From Balanoglossus misakiensis (lineage: Eukaryota > Animalia > Hemichordata): a DNA stretch of 64,000 nucleotides. Location of the stretch: contig CM082598.2 in the NCBI GenBank assembly GCA_040954595.2, positions 4,024,607 to 4,088,606 on the forward strand, read 5' to 3'. The notes beneath the pieces were generated by a model. The model worked only from the letters and a program-made list of their open reading frames with translations, made no database searches and was not told the origin of the DNA. The position numbers and the translations under genes are program-made. Below are positions 41,861 to 61,655 of this stretch, piece after piece (the stretch's first letter is position 1; each line of letters begins with the position of its first letter).

Positions 41861-42773
41861 GTTAGTATCCCTTGATTTTGCTGCAGATGATGTGGGTTAA
41901 GCATACTTATGCTTGTTGATAATGCATATATGTCACAGTGTTTTTGTGTTGGAAAAAATGCGGTTTTAAGGTGACCTTGGCGGGCGACCAAAATAAATGA
42001 ATGATACTAGATAGAGTACTGGGTCCCGCGATCGATTGCATACGCTAAACTGCGGACATAGTCGCCACCGGTATACCGCGATCTTACTTATATATTGGTC
42101 ATATTAAGCGAAAATTCTCTGTTATTTGTAGGATTCTATATTCAACCATTGTTTGTGTATATCGTCTTGAAGGAGTTGGTAATTTGCATGTGAAAAACGA
42201 GTGTATTTTGGAGGGAGTGACAAGTCTATCGCAGTCTAAGTTCTATGTCCCTTTCGTTTTACTCTGTTGTAAAGTATGTCCATTTCATTATGAAATGGAT
42301 TACATGTAATTGTATGTTTTTAAAAAAATGTTATTAAGGGGATAAACATGTTGCTGTTTGGACCTCTGGTGCCAATAATTCAGTGCATAGTGGATTTTAC
42401 TATTCTGCACCCCAGCCAGGGACTATAGCTTCTTTTATACAATATCCTCAGGCAGTTGTTGGATAAAATAAAATCATTTTAGTTTGGCACTGAAGAATGA
42501 CTTTTTTTATAGTCTGGGAGTTCACCAGCAACTGATACTTTTTGTCATTTTCCATAAGTTTTTTCAATGTTAAATTATACAAATTTTTCACCAGGAATAC
42601 CATTACCAGTTTGAAAAAATCCTAAATTCTCTATTCTTCCTGAAAATTTGGTTTGGCACACTGCATGATTTATTTTTCTGTGGGTTCAAACTTCTACACA
42701 CCACGAGCAATGTTTCCAAACCTTCTCATGGATTCTAACGTTTCCCGTTCTCAATTTTAGACGCGAGACAAAA

Positions 42774-43411
42774 ATGGAAAACAACAGCGTTCCAGGTCCT
42801 TTAGTGCCTGGTGGATTCGTCAAACCATCATCGGACAGCGATTCCGATTGCGAACACCTGCAGTACAGTGACGTCACAAACACAGAGCGTGGCCTTTTCT
42901 CGTCATCCAGGGATGAGACGGACAACGGAATCTGCGTGACGTCATCGCCAAATGCGACGACTGACAACGACGAACACACAGAAACCACAACCGGGGTTTC
43001 GCGGTTTGAACAAAGACAGGTCGAGAGTTCGGGGTTGCCGAACCCTGTCTGGCACCAGCCATCCTTGTTTGCATCCGGCAATGCAGTGCCAACTTTTCCA
43101 GCGGGCAACACAGTCCCGGCAACTCCGACCAAACCCAACGGAGAAGGGGACGACCCGGTCACCCCGACCGCAAACTTGAAAATTCTCTTGAGCGCCGCCA
43201 GTCCGGATATCCGGGAAAGGGACAACCGGAAAAAGGAGCTTTTCCCGGACCAAAGCCAGTGGCCGTTCCCAATGCCCGAAATTCCCCAACCTGTGCTTCC
43301 CAAGGAAATGCATGAACTAAAGGAGGAACAGTTATCTGAAGAAGAATTGTTTGAGGATTCCAGTAAACCTGTCAGTAGAAAAGACAAGTCTCTTGGTCTG
43401 CTTTGTCAAAG
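42774..43411 (+). CDS. E2F8: E2F7/8 coding exon 1
   Basis: Acceptor TTTTAG|42761, AAAATGG start, donor AG|GTATCA; encodes PTANLK motif and start of DBD1. Confidence 0.9.
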
Positions 43412-46400
43412 GTATCATGATGTCTTGTTTTTATTTTTTATTTTAAATTTAAAGTGATGTTCTGTGAAACAGGAATTGGAAAAGTGTTCAGTTTATGCAG
43501 AAATTCTTCTGTACTTTGATCAATAATTATAATAATTTGATCATCATGTGTTGTGATTATCATAACATTTGTTTTATGATGATCACAATTTCTATTGTGT
43601 TTCTGAAAAGCGATATTACCTCTGTTTTTGCAGATTCCTTTCCCAATTTCCAGACTATCCCGACCCGAATGGAGATAACGATATTAGTCTAGATGTTGTA
43701 GCCAGAGATCTAAGTAAGTATACGTAGCTTGGTGTGAACACTGAACTTAAAATCAAAACACCAATGTCACACACTGTTAAAAATCTCCAGGAATTACAGA
43801 CAGGCAATGAAGACAGTTCATTTTTACAGTATTTAGTTTTTAAAACCCTTCCTGAAAAGAGACTCAATTAAGACAAAGGCCGGCCATACAAATACTAAAG
43901 CCATGCCTAGTGAAGGTGTCAATGTATTCTCAATAGGGATTTGCATAAATTTGAAGCTTCAAGTTCATCTGCAGTGATCTCACAGATTTCTGGTGGCAAA
44001 TGACAAGACACTGATTTCATATATAGTACAAGTAATCTAGCGCATTCTTAAAAAGTATAAACATTGCGATATTCTTTTCAAATTTTCCGTAATTCTTACC
44101 TCTGTTCTATATGCTATATCATAAATGATTTCAATGTTGGTTTTGTTGACATACTCTTGATGACAATCATGTATTTCTTTCTTTCTTTCACAGGTGTCGA
44201 AAGAAGGAGGATATATGATATAGTAAATGTTCTTGAGAGCGTCGAGATAGTCAGCAGACTAGCTAAAAATAAATACACCTGGCATGGAAAAGGAAATTTG
44301 ATGAATACTCTTGCAAAACTTAAGGTGAGCATGTCAGTTATGTTTACACACACACATACAAGCAAACATACATACATACATACATACATACATACATACA
44401 TACATACATACATACATACATAGGAAGTATGCAGTTCGACTGGTCCGATACAAAGTGCTCAATACAAAAGTAGAGTGGAGTATAAAGAAGGGTAGTAGGA
44501 GAAACGGAAGGCAGTAAAATCTCTACAACATACATACATACATACATTTCAAAATATTAAAAGCACAAACTTTATATTTATTATTTGACAGGCACTCGGA
44601 GAGAATGAGAATTATGCGCAACAAATTGTCCACTTGAAGAAAATGCAAGAAGAGAGAGAATTCAACTTTGGCGAGGACACAAAACCCAAAAAGGAACCGT
44701 TGAAAGAGAATGAAGGAGACAACGTGCCGTGGAAATTTGTCAATGTCAAAGAAGCGAAGGGGCTTGAAAAATGTAAGTTTGTCTTTCCGATGAACTTGTA
44801 GAATTTCATTCACTATGATCAGTAAATATCAAAATCAGTCTGACCAAAAATAACTGGAAAATATCGAATTGTTTGGATGTCAGAGGCAATTTCAATTCAA
44901 CATAGTTTTAAATGTTCTGATTATGGAGATTTCAGAATTATCAAGGAATGCATGCACGGAATTTGTTCAAGAATACATATTTTACATGCCTTGTCAACAG
45001 ATCAGAATCTAGTACTGTATTGGAACACACAGACAACATTCACATGCTTGTTGAACTTTTGTGAGTTCAGACCAAACATTTTGATTTACAATTCTATAAC
45101 TCTTTCAACCCTTTTTGTCCTTGCAGACAACAACAGAAAAGACAAATCACTTGGTGTTATGAGTCAGAAATTTATTATGTTGTTTCTTGTATCCAAGGTA
45201 AGATAGCTTTGTATGCCAAACAGCAAAACAGATATTGATATGCTAGAATTGAAGACCGCAATTTTCTCAATACCATTCTTGAATGATATAGTGATATGGC
45301 AATATTTCCTCTCAAATGATGAACTTTGATGACTTTTTTCCCTTCAGACTAAAGTGGTATCGCTCGACATCGCAGCAAGAATACTCATTGGTGATATAAA
45401 TTATGAAATAAATGAAAATTCTAAATTTAAAAGTAAGTAAAGAAATATATATATTGCTTTTGATTTTCTATCTTGCCTGTTTTAAAGTCTACTTTATCCT
45501 AATGATGTCAGGGTTTCTGTATAGCTGGAAAATAAAAAATCACAAAACACTTTACCACAGACAATTGTCATAGACCTGTCCATGATTAAAAAATTCCTGT
45601 GTTATTCTCAGGGTGCCATGAAATGTAACAAAGTCACTTGTTTCTACTTACAGCGAAGATACGAAGACTTTACGACATAGCCAATATTTTAACAAGTCTA
45701 CAGTTGATCAAGAAGGTACATGTGACCGAGTCGAGAGGTCGGAAACCTGCCTTCAAGTGGGTCGGTCCTGAGCCTTTCTCTGATCAGAGCAGTTCCAATG
45801 GTAAGTGTCAAATATGGGGGTGCTGTATCCAGGATCTGAAAGAAAAAATAACCTTCAAGTATTATACTGTCAAATCCTTCTTTACTAAAGTCTTTTCCAA
45901 AATTAAATATTTCAGGATCACAGAGACACACAACCGAACCTGTCAGCTCAGCTGTTCAGAGACCGCCCACCAAACATTCATTGCTGAACCAGTTTGCAGG
46001 TGAGTTTACGTGAACCCAGCCCCTTTTGTGTGCAGCTGCTACATACATCCAATCAACCTGTGAAATATCCCTATAGTATAGATCAGAATTTCCAAATTGG
46101 GATAGTGGTTAGCGCTGGGCTAACCTTTGGTTAACCTGGGTTAGCAAATATAGCATCTCATTGTTACACCTCAAATTGACATAAAAATACACAAACGAAC
46201 AACAGGCTACAATATCACAAACTGCAAGAAAATAGTTGCTGCAAACTAAATCTTAGAGTTTGATCTGAAATATTGTTTTTTCTGCATACATAGCTTCCTA
46301 CGAGAGAAGTTTTGACATGAAGGAAAACAACCCAAGTGTTGGCAAATCTCAGAGTACAAACAGACAGCGCGTCTTCTCAAGACATGCATCGTTCCAATCC

Positions 46401-49038
46401 ATGTGTGAAGTGGCCGAAAGAGAACATAGTAAATTATGTTCATCTGCACCATCGAGTCCTACGAAAGAAGTCAGTCAAGAATTTGGTAAGTTGTTGGGTG
46501 TTTTGGGGTGTTATTTCTCCTGGTAAGAGCCCGTGCTCAGACAACAGCCCTATCCAAGGTTGTGATGATTTTTTTATAAGGTAGCGTTGAACATACTATG
46601 GGGAGATTACAGCATGTACCTTTGGGAGGCATCATAGTCCAGTGGTTAAAGCAAGAGGACTCATGATCATTGGCTCGAGCCCTAGCATGGCTGTGCAGTG
46701 TTGTGTCCTTGAGCAAGGCACTTTACTTCTCATTGCTTCGTCCCATCCAGGAGTAATGGGTACCTGGTAGGACAGAGATTGTGTTTAGCTCTGCTGTGCT
46801 GATATAACGGCTGCACATATGTTGTTTTCTTCCCGGGGAGTTGACTGGAGTACTAGTATTAGGTCCAAAGGGAATGATTGCAAATTGCTTTGAGCATAAT
46901 TACTTGTGGATATGTGCACTATATTAAGAACTCACTTTTGATTTAGTTACCATGTGCTGAAATACCTAACGTGCCCCGTTTTGACTGTTTTCCTGGCAGA
47001 TGCTAAACTTCGAACCGAATTCGAAAGTTTCAAGAAGTCCTATCCAGGAAACGCATCACACCTGTTTGTCAGACAGAACGAAGAACAAGTCAGAAAACAG
47101 CCAACAGATCAAACCCAGAAAGTGGATGTTCAGCCACAGCCTGGAAAAGTCCCACTGCAGCCAGGTTGTGTCGGGTCGCACAACAAAATCGCCAGCAGTC
47201 TTGTCAATCACGGTGTTGGTGTGCTACAGACTGTGAAAACTCAGTTCAGCCTCTTGCCAAACTCCACCACCGGTGTCCCCACGCAGACCATCGTGACCAT
47301 CAACGGGCTCCGAACAGTGGATTTGCAGTCGGGGGCGATTTTGAACCCGGCTGTCGCGTCGCTGCAGAAGTCCGACGGCGCTCCGTCGAGGAGGAGCAAA
47401 CGCACGATCAAGCAGATCCTGAGCGAGGATTACGAGTACCAGCCTGTGGCGAAAAAGAAGTTGCTGAATGCTGGCGTCGGGGCGCCAACAAACAGTAGGC
47501 CTGGTCAAGCAGAAGAATCCGGCGCTGGAGTGGATGACAGCGATGGACCCGAAGTCTTCTCAGAGACTGCACCCGAGGTGACCGCCTCCAATCACGAAAC
47601 GGTCAAACCGCCACTGAAACTGCACAGCCGCCGGCGAAGTTCCTTGACCAGCATCAGCAAACCTTCGCCCCTGAGGGCGCTCCACCACGACCCCGAGTTC
47701 CGCAGCTCGCCGAGCGTCGACAGCGTCTCCTCCAACAGCAGCAAGACACCCTCCCCGGTCGACGGCAAATTCGACGCCAACGATTTAGAACTCGCGTTCC
47801 CGCTGAACGACGAGAACACTAAGGATGAAACCAGCCAGCCATTGGAAGAAACCAAACAGACTGACGAATCAGTCATAATAGCTGAAGACGGTAAAAACGA
47901 CCAAACTGAAAGTGTTTCTCAACTGGAAACCGATGAAGCAGTGAAAAAAGATGACAGTGGTTCCGCCGAGAGTTCGCAGACAAGTTTGTTATTTTCACAG
48001 TCGCCGTTTCAGCTTCTACTCAACAGCCGCAATAGTTTCAATTCACCCAACGTGAGTCGCCCGAGCTCGCTGAGCAGTATCGCCGAGTTGGAGCGCGTTT
48101 TCAGCAACTGCAACTCCCCGCCTATCCTCTCTCCCGGCGCCGGTTTCCCCGGGCAACCGTTTCGCAGCAAGAGCGCGTCGCCGAGTCACTTCCATTCGCT
48201 CGTCGGGAGCCACGTGCAGCAGATGTCCATGCCGACAGTGATATCACCGCCGCAGTCTTGCACGCAGGGTAGCCCCGCAGTCTTGTCGCAGCTCGGTGGC
48301 AGCAATCTGCCGACGCCCACGCTGCTAAGCAGCAGCAACAGTCCCGCGATGATGTCGCCGAGCCTCGGCAGCAACAGCGGCGGGAGCTCCGTGTTCAACT
48401 TCAACCTGAACCAGCTGCTGGCCAACGCGGCCAAGTCACAGGCCGTCGCCGTCAGCCAGTTGCAGCAACAGCAGTGCGTCCCCGTGCCCCTCCCGACGAC
48501 CGCCATCCACACGGCGATCCCCAACGTGCCGCTGACCGTGGCGCAGACGCCGTCGACGGCCGTCCCGTCGTCGGTCATGCTCACCCCGAGATCGCAGCAG
48601 CCCATCTTCCTGCAGCAGAACTCGTTCATCCAGACGCCGTTCGCCCAGTGGTCCACCCCGATCAGTAACCGCGGCAACGGAGGCGGGCTTCTCCCCGGCA
48701 TGAGCCCGATCATGCCCTCGGAATGCTTCAGCCCGAAAACTCTCACCCCGGGAAACACATCGTATCAGAACGTCACTCTGACCGCCACCCCAATCCACAT
48801 GGCCACGTCATCGGCCGAGACCACCCCGATATCCAGCGTCGACTTCAACAGCAGCAGTTTCTTCCACACGCCCAACGTCTACCCCATCATCAGTGCAGCC
48901 AGCATGATGCAGTCGCAGCAGACAGCCGTGCCACTGTCCGCATTCCAGCAAGTCAGCACCAATCAAATCCCACCGGGCGTCACGGCCTCACGCCGATTGG
49001 TCATCCCAGACGCCATCAACAACCAATCACAGACTTGA
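42774..49038 (+). CDS. E2F8: Atypical E2F transcription factor E2F7/E2F8 ortholog, 1215 aa, 10 coding exons
   Basis: Coding exons 42774-43411, 43634-43713, 44194-44324, 44592-44772, 45127-45197, 45348-45432, 45654-45800, 45916-45999, 46294-46485, 47000-49038; all introns GT-AG and phase-consistent (3648 nt including stop). Two DNA-binding domains ([13 protein letters not shown]...[14 protein letters not shown]; [13 protein letters not shown]...[12 protein letters not shown]), [17 protein letters not shown] motif and C-terminal RRLVIP. Confidence 0.97.
43634..43713 (+). CDS. E2F8: E2F7/8 coding exon 2
   Basis: TTGCAG|...|GTAAGT; FLSQFPDYP...[10 protein letters not shown]. Confidence 0.92.
44194..44324 (+). 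CDS. E2F8: E2F7/8 coding exon 3
   Basis: CACAG|...|GTGAGC; [31 protein letters not shown]. Confidence 0.95.
44366..44422. repeat. (TACA)n microsatellite in an E2F7/8 intron
   Basis: About 14 tetramer units. Confidence 0.95.
44592..44772 (+). CDS. E2F8: E2F7/8 coding exon 4
   Basis: GACAG|...|GTAAGT; open inter-DBD linker containing a KEN motif. Confidence 0.88.
45127..45197 (+). CDS. E2F8: E2F7/8 coding exon 5
   Basis: TTGCAG|...|GTAAGA; [23 protein letters not shown]. Confidence 0.93.
45348..45432 (+). CDS. E2F8: E2F7/8 coding exon 6
   Basis: TTCAG|...|GTAAGT; [15 protein letters not shown]...SKFK. Confidence 0.93.
45654..45800 (+). CDS. E2F8: E2F7/8 coding exon 7
   Basis: TACAG|...|GTAAGT; [38 protein letters not shown]. 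Confidence 0.95.
45916..45999 (+). CDS. E2F8: E2F7/8 coding exon 8
   Basis: TTCAG|...|GTGAGT; 84 nt, phase 1-1, open frame. Confidence 0.75.
46294..46485 (+). CDS. E2F8: E2F7/8 coding exon 9
   Basis: CATAG|...|GTAAGT; contains KEN, FSRHASF and SAPSSP motifs. Confidence 0.85.
46624..46935 (+). mobile_element. tRNA-derived SINE in the last E2F7/8 intron
   Basis: A-box-like TAGTCCAGTGGTTAA, B-box-like GGCTCGAGCCC, CORE/V-like GTGTCCTTGAGCAAGGCACTTTAC, and a LINE2-like tail (TGCTTTGAG...GCACTATATTAAG). Confidence 0.75.
47000..49038 (+). CDS. E2F8: E2F7/8 terminal coding exon (S/P/T/Q-rich C-terminus)
   Basis: GGCAG|AT acceptor, 2039 nt open, GC-rich codon usage, ends [15 protein letters not shown]. 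Confidence 0.92.
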
Positions 49039-53782: not shown

Positions 53783-55255
53783 TGGCTTTTATCTGAGACG
53801 AATATACCTTGACGCAAAATAATGTTCTGAGTCAAAATTGGCTAAAATCTAAGTCAAATACGGTTTTCACGTAAATACCTGACTGTATACGGTAACAGTT
53901 CTGTTGTTGACAGTTTTCGTGACCTGTTTGCAGCTCTGGGGGTTCTGTTAAGGTCATTATCATCATCACTGTTATTTCCATGGTCAAGGCTCAGTTAGGG
54001 AGGACTGTATCAACACCAGCCGTACCAGTCACCGAGTCAAGATCGTTAATACTGCCCTGGTAAGGTCGTTGACCTTACAAACGCCACGTGTACAAAACAC
54101 CACCACATCAAATCTGTATATCCAACAAATACCAGGCGAACATCGTCCTCCACTCGCAGGGGTCGATAGCTCGACTACAGTCTCCCAGTAACTAACTGAT
54201 TTCGGGGGGGGGGGGGGGCATCTATCTACCGCAAAGAGATCTTCGCAGGCGAAGATGCGAGGCGATACATCACGGCTGAACGTTTATCCACCACAAATAT
54301 ATTTTCGAGTCCTTTTTTCGTATTTCCAATTGACGCAATTACATGAAGCTTTTCGATGCGTTAATGTCACCATATCTACAGTCAATAATTTGTTAACTGA
54401 TGTCATGATTAAGATTTATTCCAATTCTCAAAATTACAGCTTGGTCAAATTCTTTAGTGTCATTGAACTTTGTGTACTTGGTACTCTGTTGAGACTGACG
54501 TTAGTTGTGATTCTGCATTCTCGGTCATAAGTGATGCATGGCGGTGTGTGTCGCTACTGACATCTGGTTTACTCCTCTGTAAACACACTACCATTCTCTG
54601 ACAGACAGTGTAGTTCTCCGTAAACACAGCGTCAAGTCCAAGGCCGGGTTCCCATCAGTTATCCCATTAACCCATAGCTACAGTTTCTCCACCAATTGAA
54701 ATATCTCGTGTCAACCTGTAGGGTTAGGGCGACCCAAATGAAAGTATCTCTGTATAGTTTCCTCAAACAAGAACGTAACCCCTCTTTCATAAAAAAAACT
54801 ACTCAAAACTTTGAGTCAATACTTTCAAATAAATATATCTATTCAATGTCAGAAACTTCGTAGAAAATTGTCCAGGTTTATGGTCATAGTAAACCAAGTT
54901 GACTGACGACAGTATATCCGTACTCCGTGTCAACGTTCTCTGCGATAAAATACAAGTTGTTGGCATATTAGCATCGCTCAGGTCGGGACAAGTACGTAGG
55001 TCTTCATGTGATTGACATGGTCACAAAAATATGCGGATTAATTTGTTATGATTTCAGTGGCACCGGACACAGCCGGGACTATTTTCTGTGACTTGTAGGC
55101 CCTACCACATCCCTGGTTCCTCAAGAAGATTTGCCAGTGGCTATTAGCGTTCACTGCACAGAGGGCATCCCGACGGACGGGGGCCACGCTGTATACTGTT
55201 TCTCCTTCGGTTTCTATCCAAGCACACTGCTCACTGGTTTACAACTTCTGGCACC

Positions 55256-56680
55256 ATGACGCGTTTCAACCTCCAGATCATCGCGTTAGCGCTTTTCTTC
55301 GTCGCTTTCACACCGCAAACTCTCTGTGAAGACATCGAAACGGATGTTCTAATCTTGGGCGGTGGCGTGAGCGGAATCATAGCAGCGGAAACTCTGTTGA
55401 GTAACGGAGTGGAGAACTTCATTGTCCTGGAGGGTGACGGTGAAATCGGCGGGCGGTTGAAATCCACCGACTTCCATGGCCTGCGGATAAATCTAGGAGC
55501 CAACTGGGTCCATTTCGCGGACAACGACGCCAACGTCATGTGGCGGATAAAAGAAGATTACAACATCAGCGGCGGTTTTTCCAACTACGACAACATCGTC
55601 ATGTACCACGAGAACGGAACAGAGGTCGATGAAGACGAAATGAATAGGGCATACGAGAAACTGTACCGCGCGCAAGTGGTTTCTGAGTACGAACTTTATG
55701 CGGCTATGAAGAACTGTGGTGGTAGCTGTATCAAGGATATGTCCGTGCGTTCGGGGCTGAAATTCGGGGGGTGGGACCCCGAGACGCCCGTGGAGATGAA
55801 TATTGAGTATTTCGAGTACGACGCCGAATATGGCGACGACCCCGATACCACGTCCCTGAACACAACTTTATACCTGTTTGAAGACAACACCGAGGATGAC
55901 TACTTCGTCTCAGACCCGCGGGGCTTTGATGTTTTCCTGCACGAAATTGCAGAGACATTTCCGGCAGGTGCAGTGAAGTTGAACAAGGTTGTCAAAGTTG
56001 TGGACTGGGCCAGTCTGGACGGGGTTGTCGTGCACACCGCGGACGGGGACACGTACACTGCCAAGCACGCCCTCTGCACGTTCAGCGTCGGTGTCTTGGA
56101 GAGTGACGAGGTGCAGTTTCGGCCAAAAATGCCCGACTGGAAATTGGCCGAACTCTACAAGTTCCGCATGGCGTGGTTTACCAAGATATTCCTGAAGTTC
56201 CCGGCTCAATTCTGGGCTGACAACGAATGGATTATGTACGCCAGCACCCGTCGTGGGTACTACCCCGCGTTTAGCAATCTCCAAGCAACGGGTCTGTTTC
56301 CCGAAGACACCAACCTGCTACTGCTATTTGTCATCGGTGACGAATCGCGCAGAATCGAAAACCAGGACGATGAAGAAACGAAAGAGGAGATCATGGCTGT
56401 ACTGAAGACCATATACGGCGACGAAATCCCTTCCCCGGACGACATCTATGTCACCAAGTGGGGCCTGGATCCCTTCCAACGCGGAAGTTTCAGCAACTGG
56501 CCGCCAGAAGTTTCCGAAGATTGCTTCAAGCGTCTCCAAGCGCCGCTCAATCATCTGCACTTCGCGGGAGAAGCTACCCACGAGAAGTACAACGGGTACC
56601 TCCAGGGGGCGTACATCACCGGTCGTGACCAAGCCCAGTTAATTCTCCAAAAAATGCACGGAACAGGCGAAGGCCACTAA
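55256..56680 (+). CDS. Secreted FAD-dependent polyamine oxidase, plant (maize PAO)-type, single coding exon, 474 aa
   Basis: Signal-peptide-like N-terminus; GGGVSG dinucleotide-binding motif; GGR...LGANW; FTKIFLKF (catalytic Lys region); RRGYY; SRRIE; GSFSNWP; FAGEAT...NGYLQGAY. GCACCATG Kozak; likely 5'UTR acceptor at 55222|55223. Confidence 0.93.
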   Translation: MTRFNLQIIALALFFVAFTPQTLCEDIETDVLILGGGVSGIIAAETLLSNGVENFIVLEGDGEIGGRLKSTDFHGLRINLGANWVHFADNDANVMWRIKEDYNISGGFSNYDNIVMYHENGTEVDEDEMNRAYEKLYRAQVVSEYELYAAMKNCGGSCIKDMSVRSGLKFGGWDPETPVEMNIEYFEYDAEYGDDPDTTSLNTTLYLFEDNTEDDYFVSDPRGFDVFLHEIAETFPAGAVKLNKVVKVVDWASLDGVVVHTADGDTYTAKHALCTFSVGVLESDEVQFRPKMPDWKLAELYKFRMAWFTKIFLKFPAQFWADNEWIMYASTRRGYYPAFSNLQATGLFPEDTNLLLLFVIGDESRRIENQDDEETKEEIMAVLKTIYGDEIPSPDDIYVTKWGLDPFQRGSFSNWPPEVSEDCFKRLQAPLNHLHFAGEATHEKYNGYLQGAYITGRDQAQLILQKMHGTGEGH

Positions 56681-57639
56681 TTTTATGCAACAGAGAAGTG
56701 ACCGATCTATCTGTTGTTGTTTTTTCTCTAACAATCCATGTGTGCGTATATCTTTTTTTCCAAAGCGTTTCGGTAGAATGTGCCTCGGGAAAAGATTATC
56801 CGGCATAAAAATGATATTCCTCCAAGACTTCCAATTCTTTGCTATATAAGCATGTGATAATTGCCTTTAAAATTTACCAATATTCAACAGTTTATACTGA
56901 CGGGAAGGCTGAAATATGATTGCTAATATTCAAGATTATGGCCACCAGTCAGCTATTTCGACGCTCATACGTAATTATTTACTTTTGGCCGACAATTGAC
57001 ACATTTTGCCCAAATGACTCTTAATACTATTTGACGTCGTTACATTCTGCTGTATTCGACAATGTCAACCTATGGTCTTTCGGATTGCATCTCTTAAAAT
57101 AGTTATATAGGCCTAATCTGTATTTGTGTTATTTTGATAATTTTTCATCGTGAATAAAAATCATACTCTCACACACACCATTCGAATACATTGTAACCAT
57201 TTTTCCGAAGTAAGTTTAAGCTTACATGCATTCGAAATGTCTTTAAAGGTTGAAATAAAGAGACGATTTTCGAAATTTACACCGACTTCTCAAGTTGGTG
57301 TCCTTTCCCGGTCTCTGTCATGTTCTGTACCTTGGATTTCGGCCATAAAAGATAAAAGGGAAAGGCAGGGCAAACAACATATGTGTTTCGCGGAACATTG
57401 TTTCCCAGTTCAACCACGTGATTTTAACGAATGGGTAATTCCCCTACCCACCGCCATCAAGGCCGCCATTTATTTTTTCCGAAGAGTCGCTCAATATCGC
57501 ATGCTGTCGAATAACGGTCAACAAAAGGCAATCAAGTTGGTCTCGTCAGTTCAAAGGTGTGTCAGTGTTCCTTGATCAGTTCCCCATATTGCCGATGTGC
57601 GAATGCCATTCTCTGATTGTTGATTTCTAGCTGAATACA

Positions 57640-59046
57640 ATGGCGGTCGTTGACACGGACAGCGGCCATTTTTTGAGTCACCTAGAAGACGACCATCTGA
57701 CGTGTCAGATATGCCTACAACGATATCAAGATGCCAGGGTACTTCCCTGCCAACATTACTACTGTAAGAAATGCTTGCTACAACTTGTCAAGGGCAAAAC
57801 TACGCTAAATTGTCCATCCTGTCGTGCCGTGTGTCGACTTCCGGGTGAGGGAGTGGCTGGACTGCCGAAATGCTTATCTGTGAATGCCTTCGTGTCATTA
57901 CTGGAGGAAAGAAACCAGGCATCGGGGGAGGGCAATGTAATGTGTGATGGATGTGATGAAAAGATTGCTGTACGAAGATGCCTTAATTGTGTGGCCAACC
58001 TTTGTAGCGTCTGTGGAAAGACACACACAAAAATGAGACTGACTAAAGAACACAAGCTACTGACATTGGAAGAGTACGAACAGTCAAAGTCCAATTTCAC
58101 CGAAGCAGGTCAGCTGAAAGTCACATGTGACTCACATGATAACGCCGACAAGATTTATTGCTTTGAGTGCAAAGATTCTGTGTGTCTTGAATGTACAGTG
58201 TTTGATCACGCACACCACAATCATGTTGGGCTGCTAGAGGCATCTGAAGGTGCAAAATCCAGAATACAGAACCTTCAAACAGATTTGCAGAAGAAACAAC
58301 GCCAGGTTTTTGCAAACGAGAAGAGAATAATGAATGCTGCGAAAGTCTTGCACGAATCGTTCGATCGTGAAAAGAGCAAGATTGAGGATTCTTCAAAGAA
58401 ACTGCTCCAAAAAGTGACAGAAAAGTTCGAGGCCATTAAACACCAAGTCTATGTCGACAGAACCGGTCTGATAGAGCATTTGCAAGCAGAGTATACGAAA
58501 ATCACTGAAAATATGTCAACTAGACTTGAATGTTTGGAAGCTGTTGAGAAGCATCTGTCTTCTGTGGAGTCCACATTGCAACAAGCAATACAGTTCTCCC
58601 CAGCAGAGATGGTTACAAGAGAAGACGTAGTGGTATCCGAAGTCGACAAAGAATTAAATATAGTCTTAGAAGATACAGCGTGCCGAGACGAAATTCCAGA
58701 ATTCGAACCGACGGAAAGTTTCGAAAATGTCCTCGACCAAATTGAACCCCAAAATCTGTCGTTAGGCAGATTCAAGGCATCAAAGCCGTCTACAGACATC
58801 GCTGCTGCAGGTCCATCTCGCACGCTCAATAGTACTACCGCGCAGGCGCAGCCGATACCATCTTCCTCCTCCCACACCCACCATGTTGATGATGGTTCTG
58901 TTGTTGCTGCTGCTGGTGGTGGTGGTGGTGTTGTCGATAACCGCAACGGTGACAGGCCTAATGCTAAGGCAGAAGATGATGAAACTCATGGCCATTTACA
59001 ACAAAACACAGAGATTCAAAAACAAGAAATTTATGGACTCTTTTAA
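57640..59046 (+). CDS. TRIM/RBCC E3 ubiquitin ligase (RING, B-box1, B-box2, coiled coil), 468 aa, ending in the first helix of a DUSP domain
   Basis: C3HC4 RING ([18 protein letters not shown]), B-box1 (CDGC..CLNC..LCSVC..H..H), B-box2 (CDSH..CFEC..VCLEC..HAHH), heptad-rich region. Acceptor TTCTAG at 57630 just before ACAATGG. Confidence 0.92.
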
Positions 59047-59693
59047 TAGAAACCGCGCTGAAAAAGGGCGATACGTGGTTTCTGGTTGACTCTCGGTGGT
59101 TTAAACAGTGGAAGAAATATGTGGGTTTTGATAGCCGGGACATGTCCGGTATGGGTGAACAGAGCAGTTACCCAGGTCTCATTGACAACAGTGGACTGTT
59201 CAAGGAAAACTCTGGTGATTTGAAAGAACACCTTACAGATGAGTTACATTATGTTCTCATTCCAGCGGAAGGATGGAAGAAACTCGCTTCATGGTATGGT
59301 ATTGTGGAGGGGCAGAAACCAATCGCAAGAAAAGTTATTGAGCTTGGGATGTTTGTGAAACACTGCAAAGTTGAAGTATATCTGATGGAACTCAAACTTT
59401 GCAAGTTCCCAGATGAACAAACCGTTGTTATAAAGCATTTCAGCAAGGCAGATACTGTCAGAGCAATTGAAGATTGTATGCGGAAAATATTCAAGGTTCC
59501 AAAGGGCAAAGATACGCGTGTTTGGAATAAATATATGAGTAATACATATGAACTTCTACACAATAGAAACAATACAGTTCAAGATGCCAACCTTTATCAG
59601 GGTCAGATCATTTGTCTCGAAGAGATAAACACTGATGGATCGTGGCCACGACAGGCGAAACCCCGGCAACAGTTCGAGTACAGGCTGGCATAG
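59043..59693 (+). CDS. USP4/USP15-derived DUSP-UBL module in the -1 frame relative to the TRIM ORF; no catalytic domain
   Basis: [31 protein letters not shown]...IDNSGL...LKEHL.DEL.Y...IARKV...[13 protein letters not shown]...FSKADT...[10 protein letters not shown]...LYQGQ...DGSWPR, collinear with the recalled USP15 N-terminus; stop at 59691-59693; no ATG before the domain start. Confidence 0.9.
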
Positions 59694-60447
59694 AGTCTTG
59701 TCCATATACACCTATTGCGAATCTCGCACGTGCGCTATGCGGACTGTATACGGAAAGTGCGGTACTTGGAAAAAGTCGCTCCCGAAATACTACTCAGTTT
59801 ATTTTTGTAACAACTGCATTTAAGACTGGGAAACTATTACAGTACACATCCAAGAAATACTATTTTAATCACTGTTTGTGAGTTGTATACTCATGATACA
59901 AGACCCGGTCAAAGCAAACCGTGTCGCGATGAAAACAATTACGTCATTGAATTATTTCAACGCATTTGCTGCTGTCATGAACAAGTACATTGTGTTAATT
60001 TGTCAAGTTTTCGACTTCGTCCATTTTTAACTGATTGACCATTTGTGATGATATTCTTTTCCGCATTGCATTCTTTCCTAAAGTTTTGGAAACATGGAAT
60101 CCCTCACGTATATTCGCATTTATATGTTAAAGAAATACTGATGGTGGCATCTGAAATTAATGCATCTGTATGTGATTTTCTGGGATATGTTACAGTCTGA
60201 GCAGTAATCCGTCGATTTTGACGAGAAATGTAGATTCAAATAAGACATATACGCTGAAAATGTTTCAAATGTGTTTTAATGTCAGTCAACCACTGCATAC
60301 AATGCAATTTTAAAATTTGACAAAATAAATAAATTAAATACATGTACAAAACATTTAGATTTGAGATTTTAAAATCGTGATAGTTTCAACACCTGGTGCG
60401 CCCTGAGGCCTGGTCGGAAGGTCAATATGACCTTCAGGTGATAACTT

Positions 60448-61655
60448 TTATGAAATTCCGGGAAATCTGGATTTTATGATGTCTGGCACTTCATAACCGA
60501 ATAATGTGAAGTCAAGTTCATATTTTTTGTATAATCGAATAAGGTGATCCGTCGGAACTTTGGAATAATATTCCAGATAAACATCCTTCTGAGAGCTGTT
60601 GGTCACGTGGGTGTCATAGTCTGGAAAAGTCACGTCATGATCGGCATGGATTAGTTTTAACGCCTTTAGGGCGTCCTCTTGTAAATGTTCAAATTTCCCG
60701 ATGAAATCGTAACGCATGTTGCATACGTCACAAAGAGCGTACATGGGCTTCCAATGCATGTCCATGCGAGCTGTACTTGTTTGCGGGTCGATCAAGTATT
60801 GCACAAATTCGGGAAACGAGACTTTGATGTCTTTTGTGGATAAAAATGGCTGAGATGTCCTTCTGTACTTCCGTATGATGTATTTACCATACGTTCTTCG
60901 ATATGCTGCGTTGTTGGTCTCCATTTCAAATTTGTTCCTGTACGCAGACAGAAGTCTGTGAAAGGGTTCCCGTGTGAAGAAAAATGATGTGAAGGAAGCG
61001 AGGCGGGTCTGTTGCTCGTAGTTCGTTAGTCTTTTCAACGTCGGGTAGTGATGCTTATGTTGTACTTCTATGTGGTGTAGCCCGTCGACTGACGTGACGT
61101 CACCGTTCAAAACTAGCAACACCCGTTTCCAGCTCGTGGCGGCCACTTTAGGAACGGCACAGAAAATAAACCGGTATTTGTCATTGTAGTACATCGATCT
61201 TGGATTCTGGTCGAACTTTACTCCTCCGTTTCTAGCGGCACGGCACTTTTCCTCAAGTAAACCTATCCGATTTTCCGGCAAAGGTATGTCGTCACTGTCC
61301 TCGCTTGTGCGAGAATCCGTGACGTCAACAAAATCTGCGGTCCTTGTACTGTTGTGTTGTTGTACGTCAAATGTCTTTACGTCACTTATTCGCGCAATGT
61401 TTGAACGCGCCGTATAACGTGACGGCATACGCCCTGCAAAGAAAAGATATTTTAGTCACTTTTTAAACTTTTATTTATCGTAAAAACCATAATAAAGCTA
61501 GCAACTTGACTGCATAAAGGATATATAGCAACTTATCCAAATATGAAAGCAGTTGATACAGACTTCATGTACTTACCGACCGATATGACAATTAGGGTTG
61601 AAACCATGAACAGCGCTCCACACGTCAATATTATCTTCCTCGCTGTGAACCTCAT
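60448..61655 (-). CDS. Golgi carbohydrate sulfotransferase (Sulfotransfer_2 / CHST8-14, HNK-1ST family), 354 aa, two coding exons
   Basis: Exons 61655-61577 (MRFTARK plus TM helix, donor G|GTAAGT) and 61433-60448 (acceptor TTTGCAG). 5'-PSB motif VPKVAATSWK, 3'-PB motif REPFHRLLSAYRNK, HWKP, YDFIGKFE, DFTLFGY. Probable non-coding exon donor at 62480|GTAAGA. Confidence 0.93.

Follow-up and report, generated by a model that had tools for sequence, protein, structure and literature searches.

A TRIM ubiquitin ligase gene joined to the DUSP-UBL module of USP4/USP15 in acorn worms: a TRIMCyp-like domain capture, frameshifted in one haplotype of Balanoglossus misakiensis

The stretch of Balanoglossus misakiensis DNA analyzed here (64,000 nucleotides of contig CM082598.2, referred to as the window) carries a TRIM-type gene on its plus strand. 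The first open reading frame of this gene (ORF1, 57640-59046, + strand, a single exon of 468 aa) encodes a RING, two B-boxes, a coiled coil, a linker and the first helix of a DUSP domain. Its C3HC4 RING (57703-57825; aa 22-61, Pfam E 2.7e-8) has the full zinc ligand set of a TRIM/RBCC protein, with an Arg after the last Cys; both B-boxes (57943-58053 and 58126-58218) have complete zinc patterns, at Pfam scores of 23.5 and 22.4 that fall slightly below the curated cut-offs. The coiled coil, approximately 58237-58659, is predicted from the aligned model of a P. flava orthologue (helix 197-316 plus a return helix), and ORF1 is collinear with that protein (P0003) through the region, as would suit a TRIM coiled coil. 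A low-complexity linker of GCT/GGT repeats follows (58792-58989), corresponding to a segment predicted to be disordered in the orthologue model.

Beyond the linker begins a module of USP4/15 type, with DUSP helix 1 at 59011-59043 still in the ORF1 frame (compare ETQKQEICEL in P. flava USP15). A TAA at 59044-59046 ends ORF1 inside this helix, and the DUSP-UBL continues in the -1 frame to 59693. That second frame (ORF2, 58983-59693) contains the DUSP domain (PF06337, 59067-59339, E 1.1e-22) and the UBL domain (PF14836, Ubiquitin_3, 59391-59651, E 4.8e-31) with the WPR motif at its end, and the solved N-terminal structures of USP15 and USP4 match it at E 3e-91. The sequence-only reading had described a complete DUSP+UBL without introns, which is borne out, and an RBCC frame running on into it, which is not the case in this haplotype; the slash in its peptide notation marks the break but does not name it. 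Two surfaces discussed below are the loop spanning USP4 residues 88-92 (59223-59261) and the DU-finger hairpin GMFVKHC, the SART3 site of USP4/15 (59346-59366). ORF2 stops at 59691-59693, 13 codons past the WPR motif, and two overlapping AATAAA hexamers at 60324-60333 are candidate polyadenylation signals, though the motif is a common one.

The further claim that nothing catalytic follows the module also stands: when P. flava USP15 was used as a tblastn query on the full window, which reaches just 4.3 kb downstream of the TRIM gene, the one match was 59043-59675, and neither a USP catalytic domain nor a remnant of one appeared at E<=1. The UCH domain with its Cys and His boxes is absent from the window locus by that search, and likewise from the fused proteins P0003, P0004 and P0254; Pfam scans of the window ORFs and of the fused proteins gave no cyclophilin A as C-terminal domain. 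The same tblastn query found no second copy of the TRIM-DUSP-UBL gene elsewhere in the window.

Several neighbors deserve mention. Upstream (42669-49038, +) lies a multi-exon gene which we take to be E2F7/8-like because the DNA-binding motif RRxYDxxN occurs twice, near 44205 and near 45662; its terminal exon of 698 codons has no Pfam match. Closer by are a single-ORF flavin amine oxidase with a signal-peptide-like start (55148-56680, +; Pfam Amino_oxidase E 2e-64) and, convergent with the TRIM gene, a carbohydrate sulfotransferase (60448-61455, -; Sulfotransfer_2 E 4e-53). On either side of the TRIM gene, at 56807-56847 and 59822-59906, lie short interspersed repeats where contig depth is very high.

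The frameshift can be followed in DNA contigs from three runs, all of one sample that is possibly the assembly source. Over 58973-59099, one contig of run X2 (depth 22.2) has 0 differences from the window, which rules out a sequencing or assembly slip as the source of the break; a second X2 contig (depth 26.2) has 7 substitutions and 5 fewer bases at 59043-59049. Deleting these 5 bases joins RBCC and DUSP-UBL in frame, with junction residues that resemble those of P. flava (a comparison for which the second-haplotype substitutions are listed only in part), so that the 5 additional bases represent the derived state. The break is thus genuine in the window haplotype. Programmed -1 frameshifting was considered and rejected: the junction has no canonical slippery heptamer, and the 5 bases are simply missing from the other haplotype. 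Junction misassembly, named beforehand as something that would undo the fusion, did not materialize, as contigs of both haplotypes bridge linker and DUSP.

We read the second copy as an allele at the same locus. A paralogue is less likely: P. flava does have two fused copies, but no second copy lies within the window, the depths of the two versions (22-24 and 26-29) add up to the neighbors' single-contig depth of about 38-47, and a contig of depth 28.8 joins the upstream DNA of the second copy to 56708 beside the amine oxidase. It is these summed depths and the shared flank that identify it as an allele; depth in run X1 was set aside because of loose ends with ligation-like GATC junctions. Between 56708 and 57486 the second haplotype seems to have different intergenic DNA, including a piece resembling 60452-60498, and this region seems to be a locally hyper-divergent haplotype block. 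At 58784-58791, runs X1 and X2 show 207 bases in place of 6, a net gain of 201 that is a multiple of 3; the replacement may contain stops. The other listed indels of the second haplotype are +3, +3, -3 (beyond its stop) and, within the linker, 9 gap bases; those listed in the DUSP-UBL besides the junction add up to multiples of 3. Its own stop comes earlier, at 59667-59669, likewise past the UBL.

Divergence between the haplotypes is high in the gene itself, with 15/143, 35/244 and 20/170 bases different across the DUSP-UBL (10-14%) and 41/349 in the coiled coil; in the sulfotransferase, two X2 contigs differ at 0/389 and 1/356 (collapsed; run X1 shows a few more differences there). In the fully listed stretch 59149-59291, the residue is altered in 12 of 13 changed codons, and the 39-base loop at 59223-59261 holds 11 of its 15 differences (p=0.0003, post hoc). 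The deficit of synonymous changes is not significant in that stretch (p=0.39), and over the 27 listed sites p is 0.17 or 0.04, depending on the assumed synonymous share; a haplotype dN/dS above 1 is therefore not established, and relaxation is compatible with the data. The changes include charge reversals (K81E and E87K) at columns invariant in USP4/15, while the window allele is altered at the otherwise invariant W52, P66 and D89. Most derived changes sit in the in-frame haplotype. The hairpin GMFVKHC is intact in the window copy, gains one codon in the second haplotype and is replaced in P. flava P0004.

The product of the window allele would be an RBCC-only protein, unless cryptic splicing used the AG of 59048-59049. 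The added bases create this pyrimidine-rich AG (59040-59049), a candidate splice acceptor; joined to any of 10 GT donors upstream, it would bring the frame back but sacrifice DUSP helix 1.

Intact relatives of the gene are found in other acorn worms. A protein search with ORF1 (12 matches, 7992 candidates scored) returned as its best two matches P. flava RING+DUSP+UBL proteins of 659 and 650 aa at 49-50% identity, and a third, RBCC-only match from Glandiceps at 41%; XP_070541963 and XP_070541952 are intact annotated P. flava orthologues. Three window proteins looked up by exact sequence had no entry in the protein collection. Saccoglossus adds XP_077865176, a RING+DUSP+UBL protein whose model lacks DUSP helix 1. 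By these matches the source would most likely be an acorn worm nearer to Ptychodera. The genomic DNA of the window gene is collinear with the P. flava fused proteins, and identity is 63-65% in the DUSP-UBL and about 50% in the RBCC. The P0003 structure model (mean pLDDT 81.6, pTM 0.39) predicts a RING, B-boxes, a 120-residue helix (pLDDT about 85-90) and a disordered linker, with the DUSP-UBL modeled confidently.

In a 34-row DUSP-UBL tree, the window and P. flava fused modules, which have derived residues in common, form a clade (support 100/97; 99/90 with Saccoglossus added, in a 62-row tree) that adjoins P. flava USP15 (93/89, on a branch that is not starred). Path lengths of the fused modules in the 34-row tree are 0.54-0.67 against 0.087 for P. 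flava USP15, about 6 times longer. This fusion family is almost certainly real, and by sequence relationship it is an acorn-worm gene family whose module comes from the lineage's own USP4/15. RBCC-only proteins (P0005 from Glandiceps, P0296 and P0310) fall inside the acorn-worm fused clade of the RBCC tree, where they may represent additional broken alleles, losses or the state before capture.

Neutral decay as a processed pseudogene had been offered as a way in which the fusion might fail. For the family it is refuted, as the module is open, core-conserved and 63-65% identical across species; the window allele does carry a frameshift. Across 117 mostly vertebrate USP4/15 sequences, 102 columns are at least 95% conserved, and 18 of these, mainly a core of W, Y, P, G, L and N, are unchanged in all 17 TRIM-fused modules. 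A passenger module under relaxed selection, landing behind fast-turnover TRIMs from often-copied DUSP-UBL transcripts at a locus now decaying, is improbable, although the broken window allele with its altered invariant residues, a haplotype dN/dS compatible with 1, the truncated module in 4 of 16 fused proteins and the abundance of short DUSP-UBL isoforms in vertebrate annotations are what it would predict. Against it stand the conservation of the module as far as P. flava and its presence in Saccoglossus, the 18 core columns, which are hit by none of 21 haplotype amino-acid changes, and the concentration of derived changes in the in-frame haplotype.

Outside this core the picture is uneven. 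Four residues of USP4/15 contact SART3 (excerpt of PMC4914101), and the USP4 88-92 loop is needed for activating the catalytic domain (excerpt of PMC4243247). Over the 17 fused modules, SART3 contacts are kept in 29/51 cells and the activation loop in 48/83, against 1100/1416 elsewhere (site-level p=0.001), the loop and hairpin regions having been chosen after variation there was seen in hemichordate copies. The core of the fold is preserved by this alignment, with the SART3 hairpin and the USP4-activating loop eroding in the fusions; erosion of the loop is expected from loss of the catalytic domain alone.

That loop, which differs in each of the three full ptychoderid-type copies and is the hot spot of haplotype differences, also bears on a possible role as a regulator of USP4/15. 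There is a slim chance that the module docks on the endogenous enzyme, through its insert or through DUSP dimers, so that the TRIM either degrades USP4/15 or recruits it against self-ubiquitination. In the parts of the papers available, the USP4 DUSP-UBL can bind in trans to the catalytic insert (PMC4243247) and dimerizes (PMC4624187, PMC7935551), and USP4/15 binds TRIM21 and TRIM17 in two-hybrid assays (PMC3522295). Regulation of this kind sits poorly with the altered loop and leaves the diversity of alleles unexplained.

How such a module came to lie behind a TRIM is suggested by its ends. Its start and end are those of human USP15 isoform 3, a 235-aa protein from 7 exons (excerpt of PMC5372499), and many comparable short DUSP-UBL isoforms are annotated, commonly in vertebrates; exon 7 is placed after the DUSP-UBL, lancelet included (part of PMC4624187). 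If the mRNA of a short isoform was what got copied, capture of a 5' piece whose ends are constant would be accounted for; an mRNA intermediate, probably a DUSP-UBL-only transcript of this kind, is the likely route. The idea that a 5' piece of USP15 mRNA was captured behind an RBCC thus stands as to the capture, with intact orthologues and a module beside P. flava USP15; the mRNA route we infer, since the neighboring amine oxidase and sulfotransferase genes each consist of one long ORF too. No poly-A tail or target duplication was noticed at the window locus.

The architecture recurs well beyond acorn worms. A profile of two P. flava proteins was searched against 1.84 billion representative proteins, and 14 of the best 150 matches have a TRIM-type N-terminus with DUSP(-UBL); cluster members further supply Neoarius XP_060780148 (TRIM25-like) and Saccoglossus. 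Classification combined Pfam scans of 37 picked proteins, 11 earlier ones and 7 more with a local HMM assignment of 383 proteins. Fused examples, named or placed by tree, are spread over catfish and other fish, frog, amphioxus and lophotrochozoans, with unnamed rows assigned to a lineage by tree position only; the catfish scaffolds are TRIM25-like or finTRIM-like. In 12 of 16 TRIM fusions the module is complete through the final motif, with no more than 13 residues following before the protein ends. Matches in the ESM Atlas were all under 0.9 and serve as leads at most.

DUSP-UBL also meets other partners, among them BTB, Sina or kinase domains and, in four proteins, PARP/WWE or PARP14-RRM. 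In these four (P0020 from Albula; P0280; P0270; and P0212, from a Branchiostoma hybrid) the module is joined to PARP12-like CCCH/WWE/PARP or PARP14-RRM parts, and a second capture series on antiviral-type scaffolds is possible, as are read-through models. The reverse order, module ahead of RING/TRIM, occurs in P0260, P0263, P0266, P0273 and P0294; P0260 has a double DUSP-UBL and then a C-terminal RING, and P0297 has DUSP-UBL ahead of PRY-SPRY. Stand-alone, apparently duplicated DUSP-UBL proteins are seen in invertebrate records (P0193, P0197, P0199 and P0264 from ENA; P0204 and P0206).

Tree positions indicate that the join between TRIM and DUSP-UBL arose independently in several animal lineages. 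In the 62-row tree, whose bootstrap was not fully settled, amphioxus USP4/15 is joined by P0259 (100/98), frog USP4 by P0262 (100/98) and vertebrate USP15 by the catfish modules (100/91), and the acorn-worm modules lie with P. flava. The starred branches require four changes or more. A single origin for 10 fused modules set against 18 USP rows is rejected (p-AU 1.6e-48; at least five changes); that tree omitted 10 USP rows, every one of the 17 other-fusion rows, and 7 fused rows, most of them truncated or on long branches. RBCC monophyly is rejected as well (p-AU 5e-89), with reference rows biased toward hemichordate-like RBCCs. A host domain thus stands behind an RBCC separately in several lineages, as in TRIMCyp.

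Some fusions outside hemichordates may be read-through gene models, and the single-species cases (frog-type P0262, Albula P0020) could be read that way. For the fusion as a whole, the joining of unrelated neighboring sequences by assembly or gene prediction is very improbable. The assembly does lack a single ORF for RBCC and DUSP-UBL, and the helix missing from the Saccoglossus model suggests a bridged break; set against this are the contigs across the junction in both haplotypes, intronless genomic DNA collinear with the P. flava proteins, and DUSP-UBL and RBCC trees that give matching clades for acorn worms and catfish-type fish.

TRIM C-terminal domains select targets. By analogy with other TRIMs, the intact protein very probably dimerizes through its coiled coil and has RING E3 activity. 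As to what it selects, we favor, at a little under even confidence, an immune ubiquitin ligase in which the convergently captured DUSP-UBL, lacking its catalytic domain, would serve as a TRIMCyp-like C-terminal bait for a pathogen protein that binds USP4/15; the bound target may then be ubiquitinated, or binding might trigger signaling. What suggests this reading is the convergence, the immune-type scaffolds, the erosion of surfaces that bind host partners, and alleles that diverge, one of them null. Repeated origin of TRIM-CypA is described in the available part of PMC3137616, and a review states the USP15-TRIM25 and USP15-HPV E6 links (part of PMC8962386), both of which the sequence-only reading had given as background. 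Pulling the other way, the literature searched maps no pathogen protein to the DUSP-UBL, the mapped partners being host proteins (SART3, BRAP, RIG-I, Rheb and MAVS); a pathogen-bound surface should stay constant in a bait; and the null allele and the RBCC-only P0005, P0296 and P0310 show that the module is at times dispensable.

The main rival, in our view doubtful, is a client-directed ligase whose module binds the host partners of USP4/15 so that the RING ubiquitinates them, for decay or K63-type activation, the clients being most plausibly immune, such as RIG-I-like receptors or MAVS. It too explains the immune-type scaffolds. Reported partners of the USP4 DUSP are RIG-I and Rheb (PMC7935551) and MAVS (excerpt of PMC11626120), and DUSP-UBL binds the BRAP coiled coil (excerpt of PMC3522295); in USP15 it is the catalytic domain that RIG-I binds (excerpt of PMC4650652). 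The SART3 hairpin is intact in the window copy, P0003, Saccoglossus and P0259. A constant client should, however, fix its site; the hairpin is replaced in P0004 and lengthened in the second haplotype, only 29 of 51 SART3-contact cells are kept, and charge reversals separate two haplotypes of one sample. An inverter of the USP15 signal acting on SART3, one of two functions first proposed, is weakened, with its contact residues among the least kept across fusions; the other, a decoy, would fit better.

A broader version of the bait reading, more tentative still, would make DUSP-UBL a second "cyclophilin," grafted at least four to five times onto TRIMs and also onto PARP12/14-like proteins and further RING proteins. 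In the case of cyclophilin A, its repeated capture drew attention to a host protein used by viruses; if DUSP-UBL is a parallel, a widespread unrecognized class of pathogen proteins that bind the USP4/15 N-terminus might be anticipated, with an arms race keeping divergent and null alleles in acorn-worm populations. Convergent capture (acorn worms and fish; by tree position amphioxus, frog and lophotrochozoans) suggests that the module is repeatedly useful on a ligase, and identification of partners for the catfish and acorn-worm versions should point either to antagonists of USP4/15 made by pathogens or to ligases that naturally degrade the clients of USP4/15.

These genes define a TRIM class with DUSP-UBL. 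The literature searched, which covered few subscription journals and no supplements (where domain tables could list it), holds no description of the architecture, and the part of PMC3137616 available does not mention DUSP. The sequence-only reading, too, could name no described RBCC-DUSP-UBL architecture; it missed that the proteins themselves already sit in annotated databases (RefSeq) under generic names and that the fusion has several independent origins.

The closest precedent is TRIMCyp (TRIM5-cyclophilin A of owl monkey and macaque; RBCC-RanBD-CypA of zebrafish ftr52), in which a host domain was likewise captured repeatedly behind an RBCC; ftr52 has a premature stop in laboratory strains (excerpt of PMC3137616). 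Unlike TRIMCyp, the acorn-worm-type fusion captured the DUSP-UBL of USP4/15, such captures span several phyla, and it has no known viral target or restriction activity. With USP4/USP15/USP11 it shares the module itself (70% identity between window and P. flava USP15), whereas it has no UCH domain, is joined to a RING ligase and evolves about six times faster. The closest non-fused RBCC relatives are TRIM2/3/56-like RBCC(-filamin)-NHL proteins of invertebrate deuterostomes (22-33% identical), from which it differs by a disordered linker and DUSP-UBL in place of filamin/NHL. Plant NLRs with integrated decoy domains, in which copies of host domains are fused repeatedly to immune scaffolds, also show fast surface change and divergent alleles; here the scaffold is an animal TRIM ligase and the decoy role putative. 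Among these systems, TRIM-DUSP-UBL is a TRIMCyp-like domain capture that lies outside TRIMCyp proper and outside the USPs.
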